A DNA stretch of 64,000 nt from Cyanophora paradoxa CCMP329 (GCA_004431415.1 QPMI01000398.1:8431-72430); one strand, 5' to 3'; positions 1-45,350 are shown, numbered from the stretch's first letter. Made by a program: numbers and translations. The notes: generated from the letters alone by a model not told the origin.

Positions 1-3000
1 AAAAGTCGTGTGTTGCTCCAAGGTAAATGTGTTAAATATGCGGTGCCTGAATGCATTCCACTGGGTATATTGTATTCAATCCAAGCGGTAGAAGTTTGGT
101 CATCAGTTTCATTATTATGTGCATAACCACCATAACTATAATACGGATCCCATGAGGTGCCTGTCCCAAATGTCCAACTTCCGGAATAGTTATATGGATC
201 ATTTCCCGCAACAGCGCCATCCTCTTCATAAAACTTTGGAATTGAATAACCATGTATTTGTAAATTTGTTGTAGCATTAATAGTGGGTGCTGTAATGGTA
301 TTATTCACCCAAAAGTTACCATTGTTATAAGACTTTAAAATTGCTCCATCTGCTGAGTTTCTGAATTCAATTGACACACCATCACCATTTGGTCTCCCTC
401 GTATATATGTGCAATCGCCACTACCAAACCAAATTCGCTCGACTGCATCTGTTGATTTTAACCATGTGTTAGTTGTCCATTTTGCTGTTGCTGGAAGGTC
501 TGCGGCTGAGTAAAATGATGGTTTACTAAATATATTATCCCAACTTATCAAACCATTCGCGGGCGCTGTTCTACCTACTTCTTTTGTCCATCCAAGCATT
601 CCGATATGAATCCGTCCTTTTTTTGCGAAAATTCCAATATGTGTGAAATTTCCACAAAATACGGATGTCCATAATAAACTCGAATGCCACGCTGTGTCGG
701 CTGTGTTTTGAACATTTTGATACGTATTAACTCTCATTATATAATTCCATCGACCATTGCGATATCCATAAGTATCGAAATATCGCCCATTCGTCCAACA
801 TAAATATTGAATGTGACATGTTTTCATTCCTGCTGGAACTTGACACTGCATATATCCACTGCCGCTTTCATCGTCTGTTTGGTTGCAATAAAAACCCTCT
901 ACTGGGTTATCTGTTGTGGGTTTCCATCCTGTTGTCCAAGCTCCGGCTGGGAATGCTACACCTGTGCTATTCCAACCACTCACCACATCAAACTCTGTAT
1001 ATTTGCCTACATCTGGTTTGAAAGCAATATTATCATAATGAACTAAACCAACATCATTATCTGTTGCCCTCTGTCTGCTCCAACCGAAAACCCCTGTAAG
1101 ATGAATGCGACCTATTCGCCCTTGAACATAAATATACTTGTAAAACTCGCAATTAATTGATACAAACAAGATAGTATTATTTGTCCCATCATGATTTACT
1201 GACTGTATTCCTTGATAATCGTTTACACGTTTTAAGAAATGCTGATTGTTATTGAGAGTCTGACCATAGATATCAAAATATCTGCCATTATACCAAGGCA
1301 TATGCTGAATATAAAATGATTTCATACCTGTGGGGACAGTCCACCTCATAAAACAACCGCTACAATCTTCATCATTTTGTGGTGTTGTATAACATCCTGT
1401 TTGTCCTGTTCTTGGTGACCAATTCAAATTCCAATTATTTGCGCTTCTATCTGTCGAAACAGTATCTAATTGGTCGAATTCGTAACCTTTCGGTATTGTG
1501 GTTCCGCCAATTTGTAAAGTGGTAGCGTTAACGGTTCCGGTGACGGTTCCACCTGTAAGAGGTAAATAATTCGCAAGAGCCGTAGTTAATTCTGCATCCG
1601 TTGTGTAACTGCTTAAATCCGCGGTCGTAAGATATCCTTTATTGGTTAGGTAATCATCTGTGACCACACCTGAAAGGGTTGTATTGTGTAAGTTTTTCGC
1701 CGCCATTCTCTGATTGACTTCTAAGGCGCCACCTGATAACGTTTTAATCCACGCCATCTCACATCTTCCGTGATCATCTGTGGGTCGTCCGGCAAGAGGG
1801 ACATAATTGAATTTTGAACGGGTAAATATAAGTTTGGGCCTTGATGCATCAGTAGCGCTTACATCTGTTACGTTTATCTGTATGGCGGCGTCTTTATCAT
1901 CATATGCTGCTGGATCAGATGGAAGAGCTGGTAAAGTCGATGTAAGAGTTATTTCGTTATCGTAATAACTTGTTAAATAAATACCTGGTTGAGTGTCCAT
2001 TAAACCAAAATTTCCGCCTGCTGCAACTACCTGTGTTCTTGTAGGTGGACGAATATATAATTCACCTTCCATAGTTGTGCCTGCATCTATTCCTTTTCGA
2101 TTCACGTAATATGCACTTAATAGTAATCTTTCTGCGATGTTAATGTTTTGGTAGAGACTCACACCATTTGTCCCATCATTCATAACATTTCCTGCTGATG
2201 CAAAAGTAGGCTGTTGATCTATTTCGTCCCAATCGTGCCTGTGTGTCGATGGTGTAAACGTCAGAGGGACGTTATCAATTTCTCCCCAATCGTGCCTATG
2301 GGCGCTGGGTGGAAACGTTAAAGGCACATTATCGAGATCGCCCCAATCGTGACGATGTAAAGCTGGTGGAAACGTTAAAGGCACATTATCGAGATCTCCC
2401 CAATCGTGCCTGTGTAAATCTGGTGGAAATGTTAAAGGTACGTTATCGAGATCTCCCCAATCGTGCCTGTGTAAATCTGGTGGAAATGATAAAGGTACGT
2501 TATCAAGATCTCCCCAATCGTGCCTGTGTAAATCTGGTATAAATGTTAAAGGTACGTTATCAAGATCTCCCCAATCGTGCCTATGGTCTTCTGGTGGGAA
2601 TGTTTCGGGTTGATCTGGGATATTCTCCCATCTAAAATAATCTTCTGTTACCACTCTTGAAATATTTTCGTTGTGAATGTTTTTCGCTGCTGCTCTTTGA
2701 TTGATTTCTAAAAGACCCTCAGGAACCCCACCATTATAATTTGTTTTTATCCATGCTACCTCACACTGTTTATAATCGTCACGATTTCCTAAAAGGGTTT
2801 CTGCTGCGAGTTGTTCACGACTGAATATAAGTTTTGGTCTTGATCCGTCCAAATCGCTAACATTTGTTACATTAATTTGTATAGTGGCGTTATGGTTTGC
2901 ATAATTGACTGGATCAGATGGGAGAGGTGGCAAACCCATAGTCATCGGGATATCATCAGCGTAATAACTGGTTAGATAGATTCCTGGTTTATTCTCTTTA

Positions 3001-4529
3001 ACTTCTACACCTCCACCTGCTGCGATCAATTCAATTCTTCTGGGAGGTCTAATATATATTTCGCCTTCCATTGTGGTGCCTGCATCAATTCCTTTTCGAT
3101 TCAGGTAATATTCACTTAAAAGTAATCTTTGTTCGATGTTAATATTTTGGTAGAGACTCACACCATTTGTCCCATCAGTTAAAACATTACCTGTTGATGC
3201 AAAGGTAGGCTGTAAATCGATTTCGTCCCAATTATGCCTATGGTCTTCTGGTGGAAACTGCTCTGGTATTCCATCGATATCGCCCCAATCATGCCTATGG
3301 TCTGTGGGTGGAAATCTATCTGGTTTATTATCAATCTCGTCCCAATCATGTCTGTGTTCCTCCGGCGGAAAAGTCTCAGGTTTGTTCGTAATTGATTCCC
3401 AGTCTACGGTGAACTCCAAGGGGAAGCAAATAGGATCAAAGCCGTCTGGAAGCAGCTGCTCATGGGGAATCACAGGCTGCTCGTACTCGAGTTCTTGAAC
3501 ATCTAAGCCATCAGGAAGTAACTGCTCTTCAGGCTCTGTGTATATTTCGAGTGGGAAAACTTCAATATCAGGCGGCAGGTATTCCTCATGTGGATGCTTA
3601 TAGGGTTCTATCACTGGACGATTCCTGACAGCCTCCCATGATATAATATTTTGACCAAATGGGATTGTCTCATCGGCAACTCGCTCTCGACCTGGTCCAT
3701 CCGGCGTTGGCGGCTTTGGTAGCCCTGGAAGAGGTGGTATAGGTGGTATAGGGACAATAGGTCCGAAGTAGTAGTTGAAAATGTTTATTATCTCCGGTTC
3801 AGTGATGACCTTTTTTCCATCTTGGTAAATCGACGTGCCGTGAATATTTCGCCACTGCCTGGTGCGGAGCCCAAGATCGTAGCTGTCATGCAACGCCGGG
3901 AGCAGGTGCCTATCAGCTTCCATCAGGATCGAGCCAAAGGTGCATCCAGGAATATCTAACCTGGTGGCTGGCTCGGTATCGATTTGATTTACATCAAAAC
4001 CGTATAAAATATTTGCTTCTCGTGCAGCTGTAAAACGTAAATCCCAGGGAAACGGCTGGATTTGTGATGCTAGCACTGATATTCCTGCATCTTTGCCAAG
4101 GAGAATTCGCCCTGTAATGTGAGCCGCAGTCTTGTTTGTGACAGCATTGGATTCATCAATTAGGCGTAGAGCTGATGTGTGGACCCCTCTATCATTTTGG
4201 AGCCTAAAGATTAATCTACCAGAATCATACTTGGAAACAGTGCCTGAGGAGGCAATTCGCAGGTGCCGCGGCAACGCCCTGGATCCAATTATTTCAGCAA
4301 CATAGTTCTCAGCTGGACCCAGACAAAATCTCTGTGCGATATTTGGGGCACCGACGTGTGAATTGCGCAGAATTAACGCAGCTGGACGATTAAAAGCGGT
4401 CTGGTGTATATCCTTGTCAGAATTGTAGTCAGCCAAAATGCTCCCGAATACACGGATATTTATAAGCCGATCATCCACGGTATCTGGAGCTTTACGAAGT
4501 GGCACTGGCTTCTTCAAGATGTAGGACAT
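1..4529 (-). CDS. Giant tail-fibre-like virion protein (>1509 aa, C-terminus off window; absent from ORF track)
   Basis: Manual translation from ATG 4529 (MSYILKKPVPLRK...) stays open to position 3 (...HLPWSNTRL), with consistent frame at both ends. Contains fibre-like motifs PALHDSYDLGLRTRQWRNIHG and YLPLTGGTVTG, 19-aa FPPxxHRHDWGDLDNVP repeats, an internally duplicated domain and tandem C-terminal beta-rich domains. Confidence 0.85.
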   Translation of the reverse strand, partial: MSYILKKPVPLRKAPDTVDDRLINIRVFGSILADYNSDKDIHQTAFNRPAALILRNSHVGAPNIAQRFCLGPAENYVAEIIGSRALPRHLRIASSGTVSKYDSGRLIFRLQNDRGVHTSALRLIDESNAVTNKTAAHITGRILLGKDAGISVLASQIQPFPWDLRFTAAREANILYGFDVNQIDTEPATRLDIPGCTFGSILMEADRHLLPALHDSYDLGLRTRQWRNIHGTSIYQDGKKVITEPEIINIFNYYFGPIVPIPPIPPLPGLPKPPTPDGPGRERVADETIPFGQNIISWEAVRNRPVIEPYKHPHEEYLPPDIEVFPLEIYTEPEEQLLPDGLDVQELEYEQPVIPHEQLLPDGFDPICFPLEFTVDWESITNKPETFPPEEHRHDWDEIDNKPDRFPPTDHRHDWGDIDGIPEQFPPEDHRHNWDEIDLQPTFASTGNVLTDGTNGVSLYQNINIEQRLLLSEYYLNRKGIDAGTTMEGEIYIRPPRRIELIAAGGGVEVKENKPGIYLTSYYADDIPMTMGLPPLPSDPVNYANHNATIQINVTNVSDLDGSRPKLIFSREQLAAETLLGNRDDYKQCEVAWIKTNYNGGVPEGLLEINQRAAAKNIHNENISRVVTEDYFRWENIPDQPETFPPEDHRHDWGDLDNVPLTFIPDLHRHDWGDLDNVPLSFPPDLHRHDWGDLDNVPLTFPPDLHRHDWGDLDNVPLTFPPALHRHDWGDLDNVPLTFPPSAHRHDWGEIDNVPLTFTPSTHRHDWDEIDQQPTFASAGNVMNDGTNGVSLYQNINIAERLLLSAYYVNRKGIDAGTTMEGELYIRPPTRTQVVAAGGNFGLMDTQPGIYLTSYYDNEITLTSTLPALPSDPAAYDDKDAAIQINVTDVSATDASRPKLIFTRSKFNYVPLAGRPTDDHGRCEMAWIKTLSGGALEVNQRMAAKNLHNTTLSGVVTDDYLTNKGYLTTADLSSYTTDAELTTALANYLPLTGGTVTGTVNATTLQIGGTTIPKGYEFDQLDTVSTDRSANNWNLNWSPRTGQTGCYTTPQNDEDCSGCFMRWTVPTGMKSFYIQHMPWYNGRYFDIYGQTLNNNQHFLKRVNDYQGIQSVNHDGTNNTILFVSINCEFYKYIYVQGRIGRIHLTGVFGWSRQRATDNDVGLVHYDNIAFKPDVGKYTEFDVVSGWNSTGVAFPAGAWTTGWKPTTDNPVEGFYCNQTDDESGSGYMQCQVPAGMKTCHIQYLCWTNGRYFDTYGYRNGRWNYIMRVNTYQNVQNTADTAWHSSLLWTSVFCGNFTHIGIFAKKGRIHIGMLGWTKEVGRTAPANGLISWDNIFSKPSFYSAADLPATAKWTTNTWLKSTDAVERIWFGSGDCTYIRGRPNGDGVSIEFRNSADGAILKSYNNGNFWVNNTITAPTINATTNLQIHGYSIPKFYEEDGAVAGNDPYNYSGSWTFGTGTSWDPYYSYGGYAHNNETDDQTSTAWIEYNIPSGMHSGTAYLTHLPWSNTRL
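2226..2632 (-). repeat. 57-bp coding tandem repeat x7 (19-aa HRHDW phage-tail-repeat-like unit); 3 more copies at ~3225-3400
   Basis: cccaatcgtg recurs at ~2228, 2284, 2341, 2398, 2455, 2512 and 2569 (period 57); the minus strand encodes HRHDWGDLDNVPLTFPPDL. Confidence 0.95.
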
Positions 4530-4553
4530 TTTTATATAGGCCTCCTTTTAAAA

Positions 4554-6037
4554 ATGAAGGTGATTCTCTCGTTATCAGGTGGAGGTGCTCGTGGCATAAT
4601 TATAACCAGAATTCTGCAACGGATTGAGGCAATCACTGGCAAAGCGATTCCACAACTGTTTGACTTCGTTGCAGGAACGAGTACAGGGGCAATAATAGCG
4701 GCCGGTTTGGCTATCCCATCAACTCCAGGCTCTGTTCTCGCTTACCGATATTCTGCAGGCGATATCTTGAGTCTCTACCAGACAAACCTGCCAGTAATAT
4801 TTGCGAATCCTAGATCGCTAACGAGCCTGCTTGCAGGAAGCCGTTATGATGCAAACCCTCTGGAGTCAGTGCTACTAGACGTTGCCCAGGACTACACAAT
4901 TGCAGAATCAACAAAAGACATATTAATCACAGCATTTGATACAGTTCGGATGCAGCCCGTAGTTTTCACTAAGGATGGGCCATACTCAAGCACCCTGATT
5001 CGTGATGCAGTTAGAGCATCTTCTGCAGCACCTACATTCTTTCCACCGAAGGTGCTAGGAGACAAGAACCTTGTTGATGGGGCCATCGCCTGTTTAAATA
5101 ACCCCTCGGTTGCAGCACTCAGCCATGCCAGCAAAATTTACGATGCAGAAGATCCAATTGTTCTTGTGAGCATCAGCTGCGGAGAGGTTCAAGCTAGCGA
5201 GCAATTGACTGCAGGTTTTTCAAATGCGGAGACGTCAGGCTGGGGCGCCCTGGGCTGGATCCTATCCCTCTCAGGCAGCCCAATTATTTCTATGCTAATG
5301 GCTGGGAGCGAGCTGGAATCCCACTTTCAAATGCAGGAGCTGCTTCCAGTTGATGCAGATAGGAATCTAACTAGGTACTGGCGCTTAAGTGTTCCGCTGC
5401 CAGCTGCAGTCATGAGCAAGCTTGATGATGCATCCCCTCTAATATTTCTTATTTGATTTCCACAACTGACTTATGGCTGAAACAAACTGAAATAAATGCT
5501 AAAATAAATGCACTCTGCAGCTTTCTATTGGCGAACTACGACCTAGTGAACGATGAGAGACTTATCATATCGTCTACCTTAACAGTTGAGCCTCCATTTG
5601 ATGTCAACTGGTTTATAATTCCAGATGCGAATATCACAAGCAACGACTTCGAGGAATTGCACCCACCTTCTCACGTGCGACCCAACTCAACAGGGTTTCA
5701 GGGTGGCACTTTACCTAATCCCTGGATCAAAGTCGAGTTTCCCAAGCCTTTTGAGCTACATCAAATCATTATGTATGGGCCAGCCTTTGCTGCCGGAGTC
5801 CTATTTAATTTCAGCATTCTGACCAACTTAGGATATTTACGAGACGGGTCACTATTTGAGAATACGGTCCTAGCAAATGTGCTTGCTGCAAACCCATCTA
5901 TGACTGGCTTTGATCTAATGCATAGTGACTCGCATTTGATCACCCCACAGGTTTATAACTATGTGCAAATTATAACAAACGAATTTATAAATGTGAATGC
6001 GTTCCGGCTTGATTTCCGGGGACGTTACCTAAACTAA
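4554..6037 (+). CDS. Patatin-like phospholipase with C-terminal discoidin/F5-8C-like domain (one -1 frameshift at C-run 5434-5437; ~494 aa repaired)
   Basis: Motifs LSGGGARG, GTSTG and LVDGA. Adding one C gives LDDASPSNISYLISTTDLWL and joins ORFs 4404-5456 and 5453-6037. NPWIKVEFPKPFELHQIIMYG resembles the F5/8C signature. Likely start is ATG 4554. Confidence 0.85.
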
Positions 6038-6919
6038 AAATTGCAGTTCACCAGACCATGGCAGGCCATTCAGAGAGACGTCATCACCATCTCTGTCGAC
6101 AATGCGCAGTCGCAAAGAGGTCAGCACTAGGCGCTCTTCGATGGGGATCCACTCGCCGTCATTTTCCTGATTTATATAAACGAACTTGCCAACGTCCTGG
6201 CTCATTTGAATTCGAGCGAGCCCATAATTGCACATTGTTTTGGCCCCGCGGCGAAGCTTTGAAGCAAATGGCCGTAGCTCTTCGCAGACAAGAAAGAGGT
6301 ACTGGTCGCTGTTCATGTCGATTATCTTTGGAAATTCGACAGCATAACCAAGTGGCTCACTCCGCATTCTTCCGGTGAAATCAATGCCGTACTCAGGGTG
6401 AGCAGGTGTAACTGGAATGCCAGCAACCTCGAGATACCGCTCAGCTGCAGTTGCTGGTCTTTGCCCCCCTTCAAGCACGATAGGAGACAGCTGGAGAGAC
6501 TCATTTCGGTTCAGCCCAAGCAGATTCGATAGAGCTTTGAACTGGCAGGTCAGTGTGCAGGAACGGCTGCAATAGGCAGACATTTTCAACGTCTCTGGGT
6601 CTCGAAACAATTTGAAATATGCGATTGAGATCCCTTCTAGCCTAATATTAAACGATAGGCCAAAGTTATAAATATCTGTTTCGCCCAGATTTGCAGTAGT
6701 AATTATGCCAGGCTCAAAAACCGCCAGATTTTCTGTCCCAATGTAGGGAAAGGTGATCGAAAGATACTCATCTTTAATGCTGGTGTAAAGGCTGTTTGCG
6801 AACTCACACTGGGTAAGTCGAACAGCAACTGGATTGATTATAGGTTCATTGATTTCGAGCACAAAGTTTGCCTCGGAATCGATTGGCCTTCTGTCTCTGC
6901 TGTCAAAGGTAAGCCGCAT
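6029..6919 (-). CDS. Minor capsid (penton, single jelly-roll) protein 1
   Basis: N-terminal FDSRDR...F.LEI...VRL...EFANSLY and C-terminal LRLRIVDRDGDDVSLNGLPWSGELQF, typical of PLV/NCLDV pentons. Confidence 0.8.
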   Translation of the reverse strand: MRLTFDSRDRRPIDSEANFVLEINEPIINPVAVRLTQCEFANSLYTSIKDEYLSITFPYIGTENLAVFEPGIITTANLGETDIYNFGLSFNIRLEGISIAYFKLFRDPETLKMSAYCSRSCTLTCQFKALSNLLGLNRNESLQLSPIVLEGGQRPATAAERYLEVAGIPVTPAHPEYGIDFTGRMRSEPLGYAVEFPKIIDMNSDQYLFLVCEELRPFASKLRRGAKTMCNYGLARIQMSQDVGKFVYINQENDGEWIPIEERLVLTSLRLRIVDRDGDDVSLNGLPWSGELQFLV

Positions 6920-6946
6920 TTTTATTCTCTAACTGATATAAAAAAG

Positions 6947-7902
6947 ATGCCTACGGACTACGTCTGCATTGCAAGTCACCAAGCGGAGGAGCTGACATCC
7001 ACCTCGAAATTTAAAGTAAGACTGCCTAAAGTTTATCAGGATGTGAAAGCCGTGCGCTTGGTATCAGCTGAGATCCCCAACACAATGAGCACAATTGATG
7101 TACTCGATCCAGCAGAGGATTTGGTCTTTGACACCTACATATATTGGTGCAAATATGATCCTACTAATGAAGGACCCGACCCACCTCAGGCCGGCTTTGG
7201 AGCGTGGAATAACATTGCAATTCCACCTGGAAATTACGACGTCACCTCGCTTGTGACAGAGATAAACGAAAGGTTGACGGGAACAGGTATCACGTGCACG
7301 TATAATTCAGCGATCAAATTAATAGGGTTCACAGCTAACTTCGAGTTCTTTATTGCTCTGATGTTGCCAACGAACCAGGGTGGGCGGGAAGTCAGAAACT
7401 ACCAGGCCGTTGCAAGGGCTCAGCGAACTGCAAAGCTTCTAGGGCTGCGATCAATTCTACCGATTCGGTCAAAGACATTATCTATAAATACTGAATATAT
7501 AGCAGGCGCTTATGAGCCTGATGTCACTCCCGATGATCATGTGCTCCTACGCATTCCTGAAATTGGTGACCTTGTCAGTATGCCAATACTTCAATACCTG
7601 GCTTCTTTGCCAAAATTAGCATTCCAAACAGCCTTCGTCCAGGCGAGATAGCATACTTTGATTCAACTGAAGCAACTCCTTTGTACAAGTATGTTTATTC
7701 AAAGCTGGACCTCTACTCTGTGACTATTGAGATTTACGATTTTATGCAGCGAATCGCTGATTTAAATGGAGCTCCTGTGTCATTTATTCTCGAAATTCGT
7801 TATGGTCCAGACGAACCCAATGGTGATGTTGTCTACGAGCTCGCAAAGCTTCAGCTCCAGAAAAGATCGAAGACATATCCTTGGATCAATTCGTCAAACT
7901 GA
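6947..7902 (+). CDS. Minor capsid (penton) protein 2 (one -1 frameshift between ~7570 and 7597; ~318 aa repaired)
   Basis: FKVRLPKVYQDVKAVRLVSAEIPNT, IAIPPGNY; the -1 frame continues NTSIPGFFAKI...IEIYDFMQRIADLNGAPVSFILEI. Confidence 0.78.
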
Positions 7903-7977
7903 GCTAAGCTCGCGGCACGCAAGCGAGCCTTGGCGAAGCGCCCAAATTATTTTCTTTCACTGCAATTATATAAATCG

Positions 7978-9365
7978 ATGGATGTTACTCAAAATTTGCA
8001 GCGGCTCGGCCTCAAGGAGCTCCTGACAACTCCGCAGGAAGCTAAGGACTTTTTCATGAACAATGAGCTTATGTTAGGTCTAACCAGCCAAACAAAGCCT
8101 GTGCGTGTTGTTGTCAACCCAAGCAATGACTATGGAGACTGCTTCGGAAAGAGGGTTACTTATTTCCTGCCCCGGTACAATTTCCTTCAGGGGCTCGAAC
8201 TGCAGTTCACCCTTCCAGAGTTGACTGCATTTACTGGTGACACTGACCTGGTTCGCACTGGTTATTTGCGATCGGTTGGTGCTCTTGTAAAGCGAATCGA
8301 AATCAAATATGCTTCCTACAGCTACATTGTCCCGAGGACTGGCTTGTTCACAGCGCTCTGATTTTCAATGATGATGCTCAGCTCAAAAAGAAGTACCGAT
8401 CCGGTGGCTGGCTCCATGGAACACCACCTCAGGGGAGCAATCGCGCTGGAGGTATTTTCAGTGTAAAGATCCCCTGCCCCTGGGAGGGCTCAGTGCTTCC
8501 AATTGGTGCGCTATCGGGCGAGGTGTCTGTGGAGGTTTGGTTCCGTGACCGTGCCCAGGGCTTCGTTGAGACCAGCTATGGTGGTAGGTTTGTAGCAGAA
8601 TATGCCGCAAACGGTGATGCCTCTAAAGATGATGGCCTTGGTAGTGTTGGAGCCGCTGCTGCTTCCCCTGCAAACATCGGCCAGAATATAACTCCCAATG
8701 TTCTCAGTGTCACCCCTGCCAATCCGGAGCTTTCGAATCCAAAGATTATTGCTCATTGCATCAACGTTGATGAGGCCACTTTTGCCCAGGTGATTGAGAA
8801 AGTCAAAACGTCTGGAATCGCAATTCCCGCTACCGATGTCGGCTGGGTTGATGCTGATTCAATTACTTATGCTGGTGCGGGAGCGCCCACCCGGATTAAT
8901 CTGTCTCAAATCAGTGGACTTTGCTACGGCCTGTTCGTTAGCATTCGCAAGCAGCCAAACATGAACCAAACTGATGGAAAACACAGTGTCCTCAAAACCG
9001 AGGCTAATGCTCGCGATATCACTATTTCCTGCGAATTGAATGGCCAGAGACTTTATTCAAATGAGCCCGTTCCTCTCCTGCAAGGTGCCGAACTCATCGC
9101 TGATGTCTTCAAGTGCTCCAATCTCGATGCTCCTTTGAATCGATATGTTCTCACTGGTTTGCCATTTTGCATTAGTGGGGATAAATCGATCCGAAATGCT
9201 GCTCAAACTGGTTTCGTAGATCTCACCAACAGCAGCAGCTGCTTCCTGAATATCATGAATCCTGCCGCTTACGATGCAAACAACAAGATTTACGTCCAAA
9301 TTCGCGCTCTCCTGCACACTGTCCTAATTGTTGATGCTGCGGGTCTTCGTAAGGTGAACCTCTAG
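7978..9365 (+). CDS. Double jelly-roll major capsid protein (one -1 frameshift at C-run 8331-8333; ~462 aa repaired)
   Basis: FGKRVTYFLPRYNFLQGLELQFTLPEL and LPIGALSGEVSVEVWFR resemble conserved DJR MCP segments. Adding one C gives VPEDWLVHSALIFND and bridges ORFs 7930-8361 and 8493-9365. Lies between pentons and ATPase. Confidence 0.8.
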
Positions 9366-9416
9366 TCAAAGGGTTGCGGTTGTGATCGCCTGCGAATATC
9401 AGTACTTAATTTTTTG

Positions 9417-10148
9417 ATGGATGAGCTCGCAAAGTTCCAGCCGGGAGTTATGAGGGTTCCCTTCAAGGCCCTGTTTATTTCGAAGTCTAATAGCGGCAAG
9501 TCTTTCTATTGCACAAAGCATCTGCTTCGACTGCTGTATACAAAGATCAATCGCGTCGTAGTGTTTACCGCCACCAAATTCAACGGCGAGTATGCTGGAA
9601 TAACTAATGAGCTTTACGACGATTTTCAGCCATCTATTGTTGCAGAAATCATTGATTCACAGCGAAAGTTGATCGAAAACAAACAGAAAGCGCCGCAGAT
9701 ATTGCTAGTCTTGGATGATCTTGTTGCTGCCTCTGAAACTGTGGATCTGCGAAACAGCAAGACTGTAAATCGACTTTTTACACAAGGTCGTCATTTTAAT
9801 ATCAGTACCATTCTTATGACGCAAAAGCTTACAGCGTTGAGTCAATCTATAAGATCGAACAGCGATTATTGCTTTTTCTTTAGTTATTCAAATCACACCG
9901 AACTTGAGGCAATATATAGAGAGTTTTCTCACCTACCAAAGGATGAGTTTATAGCCATGTTCGAAAAGTGGGCGCATGATTATCAGTGTCTAGTCCTTGA
10001 TGGGACCAAGTACGATACGGCCTGGTACGTTGATAAGGCAGTTGAAGATAAGAGTTTTCGTTTTACAAAATGGCTAAGACAAGAAGAGTCTAAAAAAGAA
10101 GAGTCAACGCCTATTCCCAAAAAGAAGCGTTTTAAATTCTTATCTTAA
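9417..10148 (+). CDS. A32-like (FtsK-HerA) DNA packaging ATPase
   Basis: Walker A-like SKSNSGKS, Walker B LLVLDD, GRHFNI arginine motif, MTQ and IRSNSDY. Confidence 0.93.
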   Translation: MDELAKFQPGVMRVPFKALFISKSNSGKSFYCTKHLLRLLYTKINRVVVFTATKFNGEYAGITNELYDDFQPSIVAEIIDSQRKLIENKQKAPQILLVLDDLVAASETVDLRNSKTVNRLFTQGRHFNISTILMTQKLTALSQSIRSNSDYCFFFSYSNHTELEAIYREFSHLPKDEFIAMFEKWAHDYQCLVLDGTKYDTAWYVDKAVEDKSFRFTKWLRQEESKKEESTPIPKKKRFKFLS

Positions 10149-10157
10149 GAACAGAAG

Positions 10158-10787
10158 ATGGCAAAAGGGATTCCTAAGAAGGGATATCGTGAAAGACGCA
10201 AGGTTAATGTTGTTGAACCACTCGTTGAAAGTGGGTCGACTGAAGGCGCAGCTGTTGCTAATCCTAGCGGGGAACTAGCTAGTGACCCCAAACTAAATGC
10301 ACCCGTAGCGAAAACAATTGCGTCCGCAGCAGCTAACGCAAGTGCGGTTGACGACCGACAAAGCCAGGCTAAAACTGTAAACGATATGCAGTCTGATATC
10401 GATGATGATGCTGCTCGAATTATCCAAGCAATGGCGTCTGAACCACGTTATTCAGGGCCAAAAATCAAGACAGCAACAGTATCAAAGAGTCAGATCGAGG
10501 AACTAACAGCTAAATTGCGCGACCTGGAGGCTCGATCGGCTAATATCGAGAGCTACGTAAAAGAGAAAAAAGAACGCGCAAAAATTCGGGAGATGCTTCG
10601 TAGCGAGATGTTTAAACATCGACCTATGGATGTACCAGATTTGCGCTATTTGAAAAACGAAAAAGAGAAGGCTTCACAAGCTCTTGATGATGCAGCTGTA
10701 AAACCAGCAACTCCAAATGTTTTCGAACCAAATGCTACTGGGTCGCAACTGAAGAATGCGATGGGAGGGAGAAGGATTAGGTTTTGA
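10158..10787 (+). CDS. Hypothetical viral protein with basic termini and central coiled coil
   Basis: 209-aa ATG ORF directly after the ATPase; EELTAKLRDLEARSANIESYVKE heptads; no family recognised. Confidence 0.65.
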   Translation: MAKGIPKKGYRERRKVNVVEPLVESGSTEGAAVANPSGELASDPKLNAPVAKTIASAAANASAVDDRQSQAKTVNDMQSDIDDDAARIIQAMASEPRYSGPKIKTATVSKSQIEELTAKLRDLEARSANIESYVKEKKERAKIREMLRSEMFKHRPMDVPDLRYLKNEKEKASQALDDAAVKPATPNVFEPNATGSQLKNAMGGRRIRF

Positions 10788-11052
10788 AATCTTCTAATTG
10801 CGAAATCTCAAAGGCCCGCTGCAATTCCCTTTTATCGTACTCACGGAGATGTTCCCAAGATAATAACCATTCGGCATATTTTGGATCGGTTAAAACAACC
10901 TTCAAATGAGTTTCACCGCGGTATTTTCCAAATCGAATTGTTCCTGGCATTTGTTTTATATAAACCGCTGCGATTTAATTTTTCGATTTGAACGCGCCAT
11001 AAACGTTTCTCGAATTTCTTTCCTATATAACATTCACAGCACCACTCATCAA

Positions 11053-11370
11053 ATGGACAGTGCTGAACTAACGACTGCTTCCCGTCCACGAGGCAGGCCT
11101 CGCAAGAATTTTGAGAAGCCTGTGCACATACGTAGTGAGGTTACGCCAGAGATACTTGCAGAGAGACGCAAAAGACGTGCAGATCTGCAGCGAAAGCGAT
11201 ACCATGAAAATCCTGATTACCGGCAGCGGCAGATTGCTGTCTCCCGTCAATATAACCTTGCACACCCTGAACGAAAACTTGACAACGACCGAAAATACCG
11301 AGAGCGAAGGCGCACTGAAATTAGGTCGCTAATTGCGGCGGGCATAGTTTCCAGCGACCTTACTTCCTAA
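11053..11370 (+). CDS. Small basic AT-hook protein (putative DNA-binding)
   Basis: ATG 11053 preceded by TATATAA; RPRGRPRK AT-hook followed by an Arg/Lys-rich helix. Confidence 0.6.
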   Translation: MDSAELTTASRPRGRPRKNFEKPVHIRSEVTPEILAERRKRRADLQRKRYHENPDYRQRQIAVSRQYNLAHPERKLDNDRKYRERRRTEIRSLIAAGIVSSDLTS

Positions 11371-12258
11371 TCGCAGTGAAGGCTCCCCTGCAACCTCTAG
11401 TTTTTTGAGCTCACGAGCTTGCCGACTTTGTCCGCTATACTTTTTCGTTTCAATGAGACCCTCGCGCCGTAGCTGTTGCTCTTGCTTTGCTTTGGCCGCA
11501 GCTCGTTCTATTTTTGACTGATTTGGAAGCTGTCTCGGGGCTCGAATTTCTGAAGGCTTGATTCTACGGCTTAATATCTGTCCCTCTTTGGTTGCGACCC
11601 TTATTCGGTTCCTGTCCTGTCCCACGACTGTGTACGTCTCCTTGCTCGGTTTCGTAGCTCCCTTCGCAAAGATGCTGCTCTTAGGCTCCAGTATCTGCAC
11701 CTCAGTCCCTGGCTTTGGTAGATTCAACGCGTCTCTCTCAATGTCGTTCTGTCGTTGACGCACCTGGTGCAGCTGGGCAGCGATCTGCGGGTGATCTCGC
11801 ATCCAGGCTGGTGAATACTCTCTGCCAAAAGAGCTGTGTTTTGTTTGATTGTATGCCTTGATCAAAGCAGGCAGCCGGGAGAGAAAATTCGGCGACCCTC
11901 GTTCCTCTGTGTCTGCCTGAATCAGGGCTCGCAATGTCCGTGCGAATCGATCGATGATTGCTAGCTTGTCGCCTTTCGATATGTGATCATCCTTAGCGAC
12001 GTCGGTGTGCATCGAAAATGAATTCTCTTCTGCCATTGCCCGCACAGCAGCCGTATTAAAGCCATTGTCGCCAGAAAAACCCCAGATCCCCGGCAGCTGA
12101 GCGATGAATTTCGGAATCTGTTTAGCATCTTCAAGCTTTCTGACAACTGCGAATCGAGTTGCAATCTCAATCGCTGCAAATAGTCGAAAACGTCCAATGA
12201 AAAGTATGTCGACTTGATATGCCCCTGGTGGAGCAGTAATTTTAAATGAGGGCGCCAT
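11329..12258 (-). CDS. Retroviral-type (rve) integrase of Polinton type
   Basis: YQVDILF...IEIATRFAVV, SGDNG, IIDRFARTLR, YNQTKHSS...SP, IFAKG..P..SKETYTV. Confidence 0.85.
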   Translation of the reverse strand: MAPSFKITAPPGAYQVDILFIGRFRLFAAIEIATRFAVVRKLEDAKQIPKFIAQLPGIWGFSGDNGFNTAAVRAMAEENSFSMHTDVAKDDHISKGDKLAIIDRFARTLRALIQADTEERGSPNFLSRLPALIKAYNQTKHSSFGREYSPAWMRDHPQIAAQLHQVRQRQNDIERDALNLPKPGTEVQILEPKSSIFAKGATKPSKETYTVVGQDRNRIRVATKEGQILSRRIKPSEIRAPRQLPNQSKIERAAAKAKQEQQLRREGLIETKKYSGQSRQARELKKLEVAGEPSLRLGSKVAGNYARRN

Positions 12259-15200
12259 TAGTTATTCGAAAGATTTTTATAGTGACCTATCGCCCTGGTG
12301 TGAACACCATCCTCGCACAGGAATCGCTTGGTATCAAGCGGGTGTAGGGCTTGCTTTGATGTCCGCTGTAGCCAGATCCGGTGCTGTTTCGATCTGAAGC
12401 CGAGAATTCCATCTACGTTGCATGATATGCCCCCAAAGATGCAGTCGTAGTATCGCTCTCGTGTCAGCGAGCTGCTGAACGTCTTGTTAACGCCCTTGCA
12501 CTTGTGCACTTGTGATTCCTCTGTGCTCATATAGTACGATTTCGGTCGGTTCGCGATCCACTCAAGCATTTGTCTGCCGCCACACTCGTCCTTGAACAGC
12601 CCGGGAACCTTGCCCATCGATCGTAGTCGCTGCACTTCGTCTTCTGACATCCCTTCAAAGAACGGGTGTCTCGTAGGGTATTCACTAACATCTAGCTCGT
12701 TTTTGATTTTGCGAAGGTCCTCGTATAAATTTTCGGTCTCAATCTCAATTATGAGACTGTCTGTATCTGTACCAAGAAGCTTTACTCGCTCGCCCCAAAG
12801 CGCTTTCAGCACCTGGTAGTAAAACCGATACATATGTAGCTTTGATAGATCAAGGATTGTGAACCCACAGTAGATCGGTTTGTTGAGTTTGTATTCGCTC
12901 TTTCGCTTATTTACATACACCAAGTTTTCGTCATATATAGCGACCTGTCTCAAGCGGTTCGGCTCTGTGTTGATTTTCGCTAGTCGTTCTCCTGTTGTCA
13001 CAAGCTCTGAATTGCAATGCTTGCGTACGTTTTCCATCGTTTTCCCAAACACCGCATTATTTAGTAGCTTATAAAGATCTTTTTCATACGGGAATTCTGC
13101 CTGTTTTCGCTTCAGAGTGTTCAAATCGATATAGCTCTCTAGCCATGCACTTTGCTCGAACGAAAGCACTCTGTGTATTCTAGAAACAACCATTCCCATC
13201 GACACATAAAACTGTAGCACTCGTGCATCAACAACATAGTTCTTCTTTGGCAACAGGTTTGGAACCAGCTTTGGCGTTCTCTCGATCCCGCTTAGTTTTT
13301 CACGCTCAATAGTTTCTCGCTGCGCCTCTGATAGGTGCTCTTTTGCAATGCACATTCGCTCGGGAGCTAGTGGATAATCACTAAAATAATCATGCAGCTC
13401 TTCTGGACAATGCATGTCAACCTCCAGAGAAAAACCCCTTGAACCATGAACATCAAGGTCTGTTATATACAGTTTAGGATCTGTAATACCTCTGACGTCC
13501 TCCCATTTGAAGTCCCCTGTCGGTAGTTTTTGTTTCATAGAAAACCCATAAAGGTTGTTCGCATCGAGGTACAGTAACCAGCCCTGCTTTTTTCTGTGAC
13601 CCACGATGTACTTATCAATCCAGGCATTATTAGCTCGAGCATATCTTTTTGATATCATAGAGATTCCTCCCGGATCCCTTTCTCAATAAAGCGGTGCATA
13701 TCTTCTTGTCCTTCGTAAAATAGCTCCAGTTGCTGACCAGTGTGCTTCAAAGCCGCCTGCCACGAGAAACCTGGAATGCTCATAAAGTAGCTTGGGTCCA
13801 GCTTGTACGTCTCCATACACGTGTCACGGTAGTTTTCAAATATGTCTCCTAGAAGAGCTATGTCTGTCTTCATGTACTCCAATGTATAGTCAGCCATTGT
13901 CCTGCAACCAAGCTCACGCCAGACCGATTGAGCGTGGGCATAATCATCCCGAGAGCACTTCGACTGCTTTAGCTCGTTGTAAAATTGGCGGCGCCCTGGT
14001 AGTGATGTCTCTGCAAGACGATCCCAGCCAGTAATGTACTTGTATGGATAGACACCCTTGCGCGTCATTAGTTTGAACCGTGTCTCGCTCTCATGTAGTG
14101 CACGTGTGATATTCTTTTTCACATCAGGTACTGCAGCCGCAAGGCTATCGAGACTACCCTGCAGGTGCTGAGCAGAGTCACGGAAAACGTAAATGCCGTA
14201 TGTGAACTGTGACATACGCTCGCTGTTCTGAAACACCTGGTCAAACTTCGTCGACAGTAACTCACGAGGACGTAGTTTGCGCTCAAGCCGCTTCCTTGCA
14301 TTTTTCTCATGATCTGCGCTCAGCTCACGCCCTGCGTATTTGGCTTGAAACTGGCGCTCAACCTCAGCTCTGAATGCATTTTCTGCGACTTTCCGCCGGT
14401 TGTAGCCTGCTGCCAAAGCCCTCACTAATAGGTGAAAGTCAAATCCTCGGCCATTGTGAAAGAATATTGGGACGGCGGCAGCTTTTGCTCGTCGCCTGTT
14501 GCAGGCATTGCAGGCCGCTCCAAGATACTGCCCGGAGTCGTGGCAGTGATCTCGATTTTTATCTTTGACTTCTTTGAACTCGCTTCCACACATATAGCAC
14601 GTTTCTGCTGCTTGAAAGGAGCGCTCTTGTTCCTGCGTAATCTGCATCGTCGCTTTCTCCTCCAAGATTCCCTTAAACTGCGGCTCTTTTTCATCTAGCC
14701 AAGTAACAAATGCCTCTGCTGACTCCTCAGTTTGCGAGCCCATATGCGAGAACCAAAACTGCTCCTGTTGCCTCGTCTCTGAATTTTCAATGCTTTCTAC
14801 AGTTTCATTCGTTCCTTGATTTTGTCCCTTGTTTAGGATAACTAAGCATCCGATCGAAGATATTGCGTGAACGCCTAGCTGCTTCGTCTTTGCTGGACTC
14901 TCGGTCTGCAAAACAGGTAGAGTCATTGTTTCCGAGTCAGCATATCCAACAAGCCTTTGCCGAATCGTCTTCTCGAAGCTGTTGAATTTTATAAAGTGCT
15001 CGCCCTTTTTCGGAAGCACGTCCCTGGCGTGCTCATCTCGATCAAGGCACCGGTCGTATTTAAGATGATTCTGAAAGGCCTCGTCTGAGCCAAAGCCGCA
15101 CTGGCAGGCCAAGCAATAGTGCTTCGCATTCGACCCATGCTTTCCAAACAGTCGCGATATGTTCTTTATCCACAAATAATGTCCCACATCATTCCCGTCG

Positions 15201-16300
15201 CCTGCTGGCACGTACAGTATCGGTATAGCATCCGTTGCTGCGCTAATGTGGATCGGAACGATGTCTTGCTTGTCTAGCGCAGTCGTGTAGACGCAGAGCT
15301 TAACATTATTCGCACACTCAAATTTGCTGAACATTTTCGAATCGAGTGGCGTCGGATACGTGAGCATTGTACAATCTAGCGATGCCTCATGCTGCCGATA
15401 GCTTCCTGCATGCCTCGAATCCACCCCTGGGGCCAGCGGATTGCGCGCTGCGAGGACAGCATATTTAAAGCACTCGTTGTTTGGTGCATTGATATTGATC
15501 AAGGCCTGCTTGAGTGCAAGCCAGCTCGGAAGTACAAACCCGCGTCCGCGGCCGCCCATACGTCTGAAGTATCTAATCACGGTAAAGCGTAGCTTAATCC
15601 ACGTCTCGAAGGCGGAAGAATCACGGCTCTTTTCCTGCGCAATAGTATCTAGCTCTTCCAGCTGTGAGCGGATCGTCTCAACAACGTCTGAGCCTGGGAG
15701 TATGCGGTAAAATTTCCTGTGCTCAATCACTACTGCAAGCGCTGAGTCTTCGTTAGGCTTGCGATAGAGTCCGACTCCTGAGACCTGCAAAGCTATGCCC
15801 ATTCGATCCTGACTTGCTAATTCTTGCTGCACGCTCGCAAACGCCACTGCGCCTGCTCTGAACCTCGCATTATTTTCGAGCTGCGCCTGCATCGACGTGA
15901 CTCGGCCTGTTCCACGTGAGGGCCGGTACTCCCAGTCAGCGTATGTCCCGTTCAGCGCTGTTCGTGTCGTCACTGTGCCGTCCTCCTCTGCAATTTCAGT
16001 TTCGCTGAACTCGCTCACGCTCGGATCGGGCAGCTCTGAAAATCCTGCTACAATCCCCTCAGCAATAGCAAGCTCTAGCCGTGCAGCTGCAACTGGTCTC
16101 GGCGGCCTCGGTACTGTTGACAGCTCGTTCAAAAGTGATGCGTATTTTTGTAGTGTCGGCAGTCGCGTGCGTGAGCCACTCGCACTGATGCGCTGCAGTT
16201 TGTTTCTGAATTGCCCATGAATAAACCTGCGATTGTACAAAACCTCGGCCTGGCCTGCTATCTGCTCTTTGAGCCGCGCGATCTCAAACCGTCGCTCCAT
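12258..16300 (-). CDS. polB: Protein-primed family B DNA polymerase (one -1 frameshift at 13669-13671; ~1347 aa repaired)
   Basis: ExoI YADSET, ExoII FHNGRGFD, ExoIII YMKTD; polymerase motifs YLDANNLYG, KLLNNAVFGK and GTDTDS; endonuclease-VII-like insert CYMC...RDHCHDSGQYLGAACNACN; C2H2 finger. Adding one G restores GIRGGISMISKRY. Confidence 0.95.
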
Positions 16301-16904
16301 TTAACAATAGCACTCCAAAAGATTTTCAGAGAAAGCGCGCAACCAACCGCTCGTTCCTATAGGGCGGTGCGATTCCTTTATAACATGTCACTGAGGCACA
16401 TTGTGTGGTAGATCGCAGCTGGTGCTGCTTGGAAAACTGATAGCTGAGTTGGCGCTCTTGCCGCAGCGATGTAAAAGCATACGCAAATGCATTTAAATTC
16501 GAATTCTAGTAGCGCTTATAACACTACAGTAAGCAGTCTTAGAAGGCATGACGTTTTGACCCCGTAAACCACGGTTCCTCGCGACTGAGATCGAATTGGA
16601 CCAAGCCGCTAAGTATGCTACAGTTTTATGATCTATAAGTACGAAATCCGCAGCGATCGTGTTCAGGCGCAGCAGCGTTGCTGAGATTCTTAATCGTCGG
16701 GTTTGACGACTAAAATGTATGGCGGCTTGACCTCATCACAGAAGCGCACAGGGCGCCGGCCAAAGCGTAAGCATGCTTAGTATGATGCGAAAGAACGATA
16801 AAACAAGCCTCCAGCGCTGGGCGCCGCAGCAGTTCCGAGCTTTTGAACGTTTTGCCCCGAGACGTTCACCCTAGCCGGCGTGAGCTTGACGGCTTGGTCT
16901 CCGG

Positions 16905-16965
16905 CTCGGTCTCCGGGATCCGGCTTGGATCCGACTCGGTCTCCGGGATCCGGCTTGGATCCGGC
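16905..16965. repeat. 30-bp tandem duplication near provirus edge
   Basis: ctcggtctccgggatccggcttggatccg twice in tandem. Confidence 0.8.
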
Positions 16966-17001
16966 TTGAGCTTGGCGGACGTGACGCGCGCCGAAAGGAC
17001 G

Positions 17002-17063
17002 AGTCTGGAAGCTTCCCGGACGTGACGGCCTGGAAGTTTAGGAAGCTTCTCCGTTCTATAAAG
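17002..17063 (+). promoter_or_regulatory. Heat-shock-element-like array plus TATA box
   Basis: aGTCt-gGAAg-cTTCc-cGGAc (17002-17021), a second GAAgcTTC at ~17042 and TATAAAG at 17057-17063. Confidence 0.5.
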
Positions 17064-17115
17064 TGTGTCTCGCGCCGGCCCCGCGCATTCGAAATCTCAC
17101 TCTCTCAACACCACG

Positions 17116-17954
17116 CTGGATCCTAAGCAGCCGCGACAGTTCAAGACTCCCGAGAGGAAGCTAGAACAGAATCGGCGCTACAAGAAGTCGGAGTTGGGCA
17201 AAGCTGCGAGACAGCGGGAGAACGCGAAGCACAGGGCTAGAACCGCTGCCGCAAAAGCGATAGCTATGTCGTTGCGTACAGATCTAGAGAAGAGCTTGCT
17301 TGCAGAGGCGACCTACGAGCACGGACGCATGGCGACGGACGCGCAGGATCCGGACGCGCCTTCAGCCCTCGGGAAGCGGGCGCGCGAGGCGGACAATGTC
17401 GATGCTCTCCGCAAGGAGCTCGCGGATATCAAAGCAAAGCTCGCTAAACAGGAGCAGCGCAATGATTGTGACCGCATTGATGCTGAAATAAGGCAGGCGA
17501 TTGCAGCTGCTCGTGATGGCTTCAACTCGCAGCACCTAGACTTTCTCTTCAACCTACGCCGTAATTTGATGGTACGCCACCGACCGCCTGGCAGTTTAAC
17601 GCTATCAAATGCCAGCGACACCGCCAGGCAACACGCGAGTCCGCGGGGTTCGCGACGAACGCGAAGATCTGGACCATGTACAACAAACACTGGACAGAGC
17701 TCCTTAAGCTCGTGCGTACCACTTGTTACATGGCTTTCAGTTATGTTCAGCGGTCCATAACCTGCGCAGCATCGACTCTACGAGGAAGCCGACACGGATC
17801 CGAAGGCCAATGCGGAGGCCGAGGCGGAGGCAGAGGCCGAGGCAGAGGCCGAGGCGGAGGCCGAGGCAGAGGCCGAGGCGGAGGCCGAGGCAGAGGCCGA
17901 GGCGGAGGCCGAGGCGGAGGCCGAGGCGGAGGCCGAAATGGAGGCCGATACGTA
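17116..17954 (+). CDS. Probable spliced gene: basic/coiled-coil protein ending in an (AE)n tract
   Basis: Open frame from CTG 17116 (first ATG 17266). Two plausible GT-AG introns (~17572-17635, ~17712-17769) give ...HRLYEEADTDPKAN(AE)n...MEADT*. Structure inferred by eye. Confidence 0.4.
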
Positions 17955-18120
17955 GATCTAGACCGACGCATCTCCCGAGGCCGCACCAGACCGCTCTGGG
18001 GGCCCGTACCGCTTGGGAGGTCGCCCCTGGTCGCAGACAAGCAGCGACGCTGCGCCAAGCGCCTAGATAGAGCTCGCCCGCGCTGTGCCTCACGTTCCCT
18101 CCAGACTGTAAACACGCCCA

Positions 18121-18236
18121 GCTAGTGCTGAACCCGTTTCCTCAGTTAGCTTCGCTGTACACATCATTATCGCATAGCTAGCGCTGAACGTGTTTCCTCA
18201 GTTAGCTTCTCTGTACACATTAATATCGTCTAGCCT
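18121..18236. repeat. ~58-bp imperfect tandem repeat x2
   Basis: gctgaac..gtttcctcagttagcttc.ctgtacacat occurs twice. Confidence 0.8.
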
Positions 18237-18508
18237 ATTCTGCCCCGTTGCTCTGCAGACCGCGCTCAAGGGGGGCCGCGCTCCTCTTCGTCTCTTCTAC
18301 TTGATAGCACTGTCTTGAATAGACATGAGCTATTGCTAGGCTTTGACCTAGGGAAAAGGCCGGCAGACGTAACAAGAGAGCGGGGTAGACGTAACGAGAG
18401 AGCGGGGTTGAAGGGAGAGTGGGGTGGACGCTAGGGCTGGTGCAGTAAGCGAGGGGGTGAGGGGATGGGGGTGGTGGAGAGGGGTGGGCCACCGCGGTGG
18501 GCTCTCTC

Positions 18509-20744: not shown

Positions 20745-21410
20745 GCGATGTAGATCTCCGGCCGAGCTTCCACGCGGGAAGGCCAGCCAAGGTCTGATGT
20801 CTCCGGGGCTCGCGGCGTCCGCAGCGCGGCGGAGGCGAGGGGGGGAACCGGGGAGAGGGCGGGGGTGGGGCGAGGGGGTCGGTTCGAGGCGCTGCACGTA
20901 GATCACCGGCCGGGCTTCCGCGCGGGAAGGCCGGCTGCGATCTGAGGTCTCCGCCGAGGCTCACAGCGTCCGCAGCGAGGCGGAGGCCGGGGAAAGCGCC
21001 GAGGGGAGGGCAGGGACGGGCGAGGAGGTCGGTTCGAGGCGCCGCACGTAGATCACCGGCCGGGCTTCCGCGCGGGAAGGCCGGCTGCGATCTGAGGTCT
21101 CCGCCGAGGCTCACAGTGTCCGCAGCGAGGCGGAGGCCGGGGAAAGAGCCGAGGTGAGGGCGGGGACGGCGCGTGACGGTCGGCACGGCGTCGACGCGCG
21201 ACGGCGGCCGAGGGAAGGAGTAAAGGGTGCGGGAATTGTCGTCGGCGACAGGCGGTTGTCGGCCGACGGGCGGGAGTGAGCGGGAGAGGTGATGACGGGA
21301 AGGGTCCGAGGAGCCGAGGGCAGATCACCGACCGGGCTTCCACGCGGGAAGGCCGGGTGTGATCGGTAGTCTCCGGCGATGTTCACGCGTCCGCAGCGCG
21401 GCGGAGGCGT
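20745..21410. repeat. 150-bp tandem units with hairpin core in the 5' leader of the Gag-like ORF
   Basis: Near-identical units start at 20881 and 21031, with degenerate copies at ~20745 and ~21320; core gatcaccggccgggcttccgcgcgggaaggccggctgcgatc is largely self-complementary. Confidence 0.85.
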
Positions 21411-22217
21411 GGGCGGGAGAAGGTGGGGCGGGGGAAGTGATCGCGAGGCAGATCCGCAGCTGAACGTCGGCGACCCACCGGCGAGTCGAAGGGCTGAATC
21501 CGCCGGAAATTTTGGCAGAGTCTCCCCCTTCGAAAGGCCGAGAAATGCGCGGCGCTGAAGCGGGCGGCGGGGCGAGGTCGGTCGGTCGAGGTCGGCCGGT
21601 GACGGGCGTGTCCGGTCGACGATCCACCGTTTCCGAGCGTCGTCGATGCCACTAGCAACGATTCCGCGTCCGGCGTGGGACGGGGGCGTGCCAGTCGATT
21701 CCCGCGGACTGCGGATGCAAGAGGCGACTGTTAGCGAGTCCGGCGTCGGCGTGCGGCGGCGGATTCGCAATACTGTCCTCCGAAACGCGCTCTCCGTCCA
21801 CGGGTCGCTTCGCCCAGCGGTCCGACCACGCCTAGCCAAGATGCGGCTGGCAGGTCGGCTGGCTGGACGAGGCCCGGCGAGGGTCAGATGAGCCTAGTTT
21901 ACGGTGCTGCTAGGCGTGGCCATGCGTGCTGCGCAGTTCTAACAGGTCGGCGGCAAGAGCGAGCTGAGGTGGTATTCCAGGAGCAAGCACAAGCACAGGG
22001 TACAAGTGTGCCACCCGGGGTGTGGGCCCAGGCGGGGTACATGAAAAGTAGCAGGGGTCCAATCGGCGCACTCAACGCGAGCACCGCGGAGACTAAGGCC
22101 AAGCGCTGCGAGTAGCGAGACTCGGAGGGCCGGCTCCTGACGGCATAAAGCCGTGAGGCAATATAACGCACGTAGATTGTAAATATAAATATAATCAGTG
22201 AGCTGTGGGTAGGCTGG

Positions 22218-23206: not shown

Positions 23207-26007
<2,801 letters not shown>

Positions 26008-27362: not shown

Positions 27363-27380
27363 TCATGATGCGCCCGCCGG

Positions 27381-42558: not shown

Positions 42559-45350
<2,792 letters not shown>

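Follow-up and report, generated by a model that had tools for sequence, protein, structure and literature searches.

A probable endogenous Polinton-like virus with a predicted double jelly-roll capsid in Cyanophora paradoxa CCMP329

Gene content of the island

The DNA analysed here (the window) is a 64,000-nt stretch of Cyanophora paradoxa CCMP329 (GCA_004431415.1 QPMI01000398.1:8431-72430), with positions counted from its start, and its left end holds an island which is almost certainly an endogenous Polinton-like virus (PLV). Ten genes, none of which needs an intron, make up 98% of positions 1-16,300 (Table 1). They run in the order fibre (-), patatin (+), penton 1 (-), penton 2 (+), capsid, ATPase and two small open reading frames (ORFs) (all +), then integrase-like protein and polymerase (both -). 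GC content per kb is 0.39-0.53 over 1-17,000 vs 0.667 over 21,000-64,000, and the adjoining host kinase gene (from ~23,208) is interrupted by short introns, so the first-pass annotation was right to describe a compact, intron-less island beside intron-bearing algal DNA, and the island is also low in GC. The closest capsid relative, P0001, carries the label Cyanophora paradoxa in EukProt, and the protein of a flanking zinc-knuckle ORF is present there letter for letter. An Rfam scan of 1-22,000 gave no match, nor did tblastn against phages and plasmids, and an exact-sequence look-up of nine island proteins or pieces found none of them in the protein collection.

Table 1. Features of the island and of its right-hand border
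Feature	Position	Strand	Basis or remark
Fibre-like protein, at least 1509 aa	3..4529	-	Repeats, modules and heads; runs off left window edge
Patatin phospholipase with ~200-aa tail domain	4554..6037	+	Pfam Patatin E 1.7e-25; frame break near 5433
Penton-like gene 1 (putative minor capsid), 296 aa	6029..6919	-	ESM Atlas 0.97-0.98; unbroken
Penton-like gene 2 (putative minor capsid)	6947..7902	+	ESM Atlas 0.96-0.98 over first 234 aa; frame break near 7583
Predicted double jelly-roll major capsid protein	7978..9365	+	Fold of homolog P0001; Bellas 2023 Table S2; frame break near 8330
Predicted A32-type packaging ATPase, 243 aa	9417..10148	+	Pox_A32 E 3.8e-10, above cut-off; Walker motifs
Charged protein, 209 aa	10158..10787	+	No significant Pfam family
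Small basic protein	10906..11370	+	AT-hook match E 0.007, below cut-off; start maybe 11053
Integrase-like protein, 309 aa, read as rve type	11329..12258	-	D-D-D triad (D17, D64, D103)
Putative protein-primed family B DNA polymerase (pPolB)	12258..16300	-	Pfam DNA_pol_B_2; frame break near 13668
Non-coding stretch, first right-end candidate	16301..16975	.	Ends in 30-nt tandem repeats (~16884-16975) common to many loci
Spliced gene with RGG-rich tail	17062..18125	+	Inferred introns 17572-17639 and 17725-17769; start codon not fixed
High-copy block ending in CTACT, second right-terminus candidate	17971..18301	.	Joints, depth

The larger piece of the split capsid gene has one homolog, P0001 (456 aa), among 6436 candidates, and the window's capsid is 60-77% identical to it (75% and 60% for the two pieces). 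We folded P0001 with an eight-row alignment, as a single-sequence fold scored only 34 in the predicted local distance difference test (pLDDT), and the resulting model has pLDDT 64 and a predicted template modelling (TM) score of 0.68. Its best Foldseek match is Vp54 of Paramecium bursaria chlorella virus 1 (E 1.1e-19, TM ~0.6), followed by the capsids of iridovirus, Emiliania huxleyi virus, faustovirus and African swine fever virus. The two capsids with a virophage label come 35th and 48th in the list of 50, after those of nucleocytoplasmic large DNA viruses (NCLDVs). By this model, the window's capsid is predicted to be a double jelly-roll protein and is not of virophage (Virophaviricetes) type, with the fold coming from a natural intact homolog and not from the window's own broken gene. 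The earlier reading of the capsid as NCLDV/PLV-like agrees with these NCLDV matches, such a fold being usual in Polintons and PLVs (Bellas 2023, PMC10120064). A PDB sequence search with the capsid returned nothing meaningful.

A full scan of 1.84 billion representative proteins with the capsid gave six matches: P0001, four relatives and P0003 (3989 aa, cadherin-like repeats), which was dropped as an unrelated repeat protein. With five true relatives in a collection of that size, the lineage is very isolated in sequence. Distant capsid relatives at 25-38% identity were seen on European Nucleotide Archive (ENA) contigs of 1-12 kb (P0004-P0008) and in Logan (P0002).

The ATPase is predicted to be of the A32-like packaging type on the grounds listed in Table 1. 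The polymerase matches DNA_pol_B_2 (PF03175) at E 6e-4, below the curated cut-off, and contains Exo I-III, Pol A and Pol C motifs; weak match and motifs together point to a pPolB. Between Exo I and Exo II lies an endonuclease VII/HNH-like zinc domain (residues 551-607, ~14480-14650 on the minus strand, Pfam E 2e-7), and a PDB search with the C-terminal part returned nothing meaningful. For the integrase-like protein, searches of Pfam, PHROGs, NCBIfam, PDB and plasmids gave no integrase match. The small basic protein likely binds DNA, as predicted from its sequence. No adenovirus-type maturation protease was found among the ORFs of 1-16,300, the element's left part lying beyond the window, and a general Pfam scan of the island ORFs (without dedicated profiles, and of an incomplete element) found no VLTF2/3, Mriya48 or HUH endonuclease.

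The two penton-like genes diverge, separated by 27 bp. The ESM Atlas clusters that both match are mostly viral, with DUF5901, Sputnik V18/19 or adenovirus penton on 12-26% of members, and their recognition values (2030 and 1986) are below the recognition mark of 2300. Both calls are therefore best treated as leads supported by gene context, each predicting a single jelly-roll minor capsid protein. BLAST found no significant similarity between the two proteins, and a search with penton 1 at E 0.1 found no homolog.

At the left end, the fibre and patatin genes diverge from a 24-bp spacer. The fibre holds two blocks of 19-aa H-x-H-x-W repeats (ten repeats in all), two modules which are 61% identical and three related head domains, and the 19-aa repeats match phage tail families (at least 16 PHROG families listed, the best named at E 3e-25). 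The patatin contains GGGARG, GTSTG and DGA motifs. Its tail matches no family: discoidin was unconfirmed by Pfam even at E 10, and PDB gave nothing meaningful. The tail may be discoidin-like by analogy with Bulzu 2025 (PMC12220804), where discoidin was seen in 11 PLVs of glaucophytes (alone, paired or fused to patatin).

An alternative is that the patatin serves in defence, killing or disabling the giant-virus-infected cell, and has no part in entry. The NCBIfam models that it matches best are a cyclic-oligonucleotide-based anti-phage signalling system (CBASS) phospholipase activated by cyclic GMP-AMP (cGAMP), at E 3e-39, and, at E 1.6e-19, an anti-phage phospholipase; neither match reaches its cut-off. 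However, the gene sits inside the structural module and shares its spacer with the fibre, the lipase of the PLV Gezel-14T is virion-borne (10.1101/2022.07.28.501842), and the window yielded neither a cyclase nor a sensor gene, so we consider a defence role quite improbable.

The entry genes had been called unusually elaborate, a view that precedent does not bear out. According to Bulzu 2025 (PMC12220804), patatin is fused to discoidin in glaucophyte PLVs and most PLVs have long fibres, and that study likewise infers independent entry; lipases are fairly common according to a second 2026 preprint (Cyanophora is unmentioned in its accessible part), and two pentons occur in Trimcap B PLVs. Of the gene set as first proposed, the patatin, A32 ATPase, pPolB motifs, capsid and fibre stand, the pentons stand as leads, and the rve integrase, a call from motifs, is weaker. 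The gene set and the homolog's fold nevertheless bear out the proposal that a probable glaucophyte carries an endogenous PLV (in the broad sense, Polisuviricotina) whose capsid is of the double jelly-roll kind.

Copies, frame breaks and the right end

The element is likely one copy of a many-copy PLV family in a probable glaucophyte genome. Twenty runs from 17 studies of one organism contain 0.60-0.65 of the words of 6900-16800, and in three DNA runs 1561-2242 contigs each align to 1-19,500 at 85-100% identity. Summed contig depth, which is not a copy number, is mostly 3,800-12,900 over 1-11,050 in run X1 (one bin 1,810) vs 1,357-2,398 over 11,051-16,250. The shallower depth over the integrase and pPolB agrees with the 49 of 156 glaucophyte elements that carry pPolB (Bulzu 2025, PMC12220804, Table S6): the capsid module is shared with copies bearing other replication genes. 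Contigs depart from the window at 6028 (just after the patatin) and at 10787-10792 (after the 209-aa ORF), which suggests that these are points of module exchange between copies.

Differences among copies are mostly synonymous. For pPolB, the 40 best-supported of 201 difference rows include 34 coding differences, of which 26 are at the third codon position, 25 are synonymous and none is nonsense. Over the element (40 of 1752 rows, 30 tested), 15 of the 30 listed coding differences are at the third position and 14 are synonymous, again with no nonsense change. All seven listed length variants of the fibre keep the frame, so the fibre varies by in-frame gain and loss of repeats.

Such a family could instead be a self-synthesising transposon, spreading within genomes by means of its pPolB and integrase with the virion genes as passengers. 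High copy number would fit, as would the lack of any close relative in IMG/VR and JGI metagenomes by word search (which is insensitive and does not show absence), and a contig joint from 7926 to 18030 could be an internally deleted copy. Against this, depth is greater over the capsid module than over the replication module, nonsense changes are absent among the listed differences, and the distant capsid relatives lie on ENA and Logan contigs. We regard a transposon as improbable and continue to read the locus as a virus.

Four genes (patatin, penton 2, capsid and pPolB) are split over two frames. Every break is one base short with no in-frame stop; the sequence at three of them is a run of 3-4 identical bases, and at the fourth a 2-base run. 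At every break, contigs of the runs have one extra base: in three DNA runs for those near 5433 and 8330, in two for 7583 and in one for 13668. The break rate in the element (~0.25 per kb) is below the rate of homopolymer gaps between two host duplicates in the window (~1.8 per kb), where 25 of 27 gaps are one-base homopolymer gaps, and long-read artefacts of this kind are documented in these elements (Bellas 2023, PMC10120064). The breaks are thus very probably assembly errors. Two points count against this: Logan contigs drop rare variants and so cannot prove that this copy's breaks are erroneous, which leaves the assembly-error reading unproven, and at many listed substitutions too no contig has the window's letter.

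If the four breaks are real mutations that followed insertion, the copy would be the dead remnant of a once active family. Four split genes are what one would expect, only ~0.6 of the window's words are present in any run, and rare true variants would be invisible in contigs; the uniform one-base shortfall without stops and the break rate relative to the host duplicate's both argue the other way, and decay seems unlikely to us. On the preferred reading of assembly error it is plausible that the copy is intact, although the confident description of an intact element is not confirmed, given the four split genes, a fibre that runs off the left edge and no inverted-repeat pair or target-site duplication shown.

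The right boundary was initially placed at 16,840. A rise in depth at 16,647-16,940, the 30-nt repeats and loose contig ends at 16884, 16897 and 16928 fit an end near there. The competing candidate is 18,301. Contig joints 16,393->17,971 and 7,926->18,030 are present in three of three DNA runs (their short sides, 20-31 letters at 85% likeness, are flagged as weak), and depth in run X1 peaks at 12064 at 18,270. Polintons typically end in AG...CT. The CTACT at 18,301 is the only one in 16,300-19,500 (27 in the window), and the terminal 23-mer has no match among viral contigs. We found no statement of AG...CT Polinton ends in the accessible parts of the literature (including PMC3014272 and bioRxiv 2024.01.15.575659). 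The boundary at 16,840 is therefore not established, and an end at 18,301 has about even odds. As to a chimeric junction, among the listed contigs none bridges 16,720-16,934, though contigs break at repeats.

The choice of end decides the ownership of the spliced gene, which may belong to the element only if the end is at 18,301. A contig of run X21 follows the window up to 17570 and again from 17770, 85 letters separating the two parts, and the spliced frame is open. The gene's GC content at third codon positions is 0.65, vs 0.33-0.54 for island genes, and its 3' part sits in the high-copy block which other copies join to the virus interior. A further joint connects this block (17971-18301) to the gag-side repeat. 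If the end at 18,301 is true, this PLV would carry a host-transcribed spliced gene, which would help in finding out what keeps such elements latent.

The remaining features lie in the flanking DNA. A gag-like ORF (727 aa, 18509-20692, minus strand) has CCHC zinc knuckles (Pfam E 1.7e-7) and is covered by contigs of run X21; no adjacent reverse transcriptase and no long terminal repeat pair were found around it, and 150-bp tandem repeats lie beside it at 20750-21434. A 7.1-kb host segment occurs twice (22222-29334 and 41584-48669, 99% identity) and contains the kinase gene, which from its sequence we take to be of CDKL type. Because 25 of the 27 gaps are one-base homopolymer gaps, the repeated segment may reflect either segmental duplication or duplication in the assembly. 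Further along are a non-LTR retrotransposon (49300-56038, minus strand), broken into several frames, that encodes apurinic/apyrimidinic (AP) endonuclease, reverse transcriptase and RNase H, and two more host repeats (33400-35800 and 37300-39300; 700-800 bp, 93-95% identity).

Proposed lifestyle

We give a probability of roughly 60% to the following reading: the element belongs to a multi-copy PLV family and is a silent integrated virus which forms particles only when a giant virus supplies transcription. The integrase would insert a linear genome bounded by inverted repeats, and on activation pPolB would copy it from a protein primer at its ends. The ATPase would then package it into a capsid with one or both pentons at its vertices. 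The fibre would bind the cell surface, its variable repeats and heads likely tuning host or receptor range, and the patatin, likely virion-borne, would breach a membrane during entry.

Dependence on a giant-virus helper, taken by itself, is only slightly favoured. We lean towards it because no RNA polymerase or transcription factor was found among the island ORFs (Pfam, PHROGs, NCBIfam), the divergent gene pairs are tight (24 and 27 bp apart), TATA(A/T)A lies close to gene starts (4 of 11 candidate starts have it within 21 nt, vs 15 of 521 ATGs), and other PLVs are helper-dependent. For example, Gezel-14T and three Tetraselmis PLVs depend on helpers, and the Tetraselmis PLVs are woken by a giant virus (10.1101/2022.07.28.501842; 10.64898/2026.06.19.733378; Tetraselmis preprint). 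No RNA run is listed for 6900-16800, and run X21 leaves 1-16,900 essentially uncovered; these were not used as expression evidence.

Several points weigh against this reading. The TATA motif was picked post hoc, a single palindromic site accounts for two of the four starts, and the intergenic DNA is AT-rich. The integrase-like protein has no family match. The synonymous counts cover only a small part of the 201 and 1752 difference rows, and in-frame fibre variants are partly expected, the repeat units being multiples of three. Lastly, the original description of TsV-N1 presented it as nuclear and autonomous (Bellas and Sommaruga 2026, bioRxiv 10.64898/2026.06.19.733378).

That precedent leads to a different possibility, namely an autonomous nuclear virus which uses host RNA polymerase II and its own pPolB and spreads without a helper. 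The element possesses TATA-like boxes, a polymerase that shows exonuclease and polymerase motifs, and attachment and lipase genes of its own, and if 17,062-18,125 belongs to it, at least one gene is read in the nucleus. However, the TATA-like boxes are just 3-17 nt from the ATG in an element whose divergent pairs are so close, and a giant virus is required by most of the PLVs that have been isolated, close relatives of TsV-N1 among them (10.64898/2026.06.19.733378; Tetraselmis preprint). Fibre and lipase had also been taken as a sign that the virion finds and enters cells on its own, but they do not show autonomy because Gezel-14T, whose virion contains both, still relies on a giant virus (10.1101/2022.07.28.501842). 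Autonomy is accordingly possible but unlikely.

If the lifestyle is indeed giant-virus-dependent, a giant virus of glaucophytes, which among primary-plastid lineages are the least studied, would be expected in a cultured model alga. A fuller scenario can be drawn, which we hold only tentatively and think doubtful as a whole: a deep unnamed glaucophyte lineage with two dissimilar pentons at its vertices and a fibre diversified by in-frame repeat exchange, ending at 18,301 with a spliced, nucleus-transcribed RGG latency gene, while its virion genes await an undiscovered glaucophyte giant virus.

Comparison with known systems

Gezel-14T (PgVV; 10.1101/2022.07.28.501842) shares with the element a capsid, penton, ATPase, long tail-fibre-like protein and lipase, and its own entry has been inferred. 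It differs in having TVpol, a tyrosine recombinase, an alpha/beta hydrolase and one penton, where the element has pPolB, an rve-like integrase, a patatin and two pentons.

Maverick-Polintons (Polintoviricetes) have in common with it pPolB, A32 ATPase, double jelly-roll capsid, penton and phospholipase, and possibly an rve-like integrase. An HNH insert, which Jeong et al. (10.1101/2023.08.22.554363) treat as unique to oomycete and nematode pPolB2, has a candidate counterpart in the HNH-like domain here. By contrast, no maturation protease was found in the window's ORFs or in any of the 156 glaucophyte elements (PMC12220804), and in Bellas Table S4 (PMC10120064) the capsid belongs to unnamed clusters that lie outside the columns for Maverick-Polintons.

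Two groups in Bellas and Sommaruga 2026 (10.64898/2026.06.19.733378), the accessible part of which does not mention Cyanophora, are also similar. Several Trimcap B PLVs have two penton genes, but they carry three capsid genes vs one here. NCLDV-like PLVs (Zephyr, Zora) share an NCLDV-like capsid module and, in some members, a lipase and pPolB or rve; for VLTF3, HUH and Mriya48 the island gave no match in the general Pfam scan. [quoted passage not shown]

The nearest systems are the elements already tabulated from C. paradoxa itself. Bellas 2023 (PMC10120064) lists 366 capsid hits in this alga in two unnamed clusters (272 + 94), filed under 'Iterative HMM searches' outside the named groups, and estimates the elements at 7% of the genome (Table S4). 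A row of its Table S2 gives a 456-aa protein from P0001's contig, with 400 displayed residues identical by eye and an HHpred match of 98.47% to an iridovirus capsid. Among 156 glaucophyte elements in Bulzu 2025 (PMC12220804, Table S6), ATPase is present in 139, rve in 85 and lipase in 89. PLV capsid profiles recognise 2 of these 156 and MCP-VIR none; standard PLV profiles miss this capsid family, so surveys relying on them would undercount it.

In the accessible literature we found no text on the gene order, penton pair or termini of these elements, and pairing Cyanophora with Polinton terms gave no paper devoted to them (preprint supplements being outside the scope of that search). The suggestion of an undescribed lineage is not borne out as to novelty: the capsid family is catalogued, P0001 being the Table S2 row, although the lineage is unnamed, sequence-isolated and absent from the running text found. 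With the tabulated elements (PMC10120064, PMC12220804) our element shares its capsid family, gene kinds, patatin fusions and phage-tail repeats; in those papers the group has only been tabulated. The element is a well-annotated addition to a family whose presence in C. paradoxa had already been counted.

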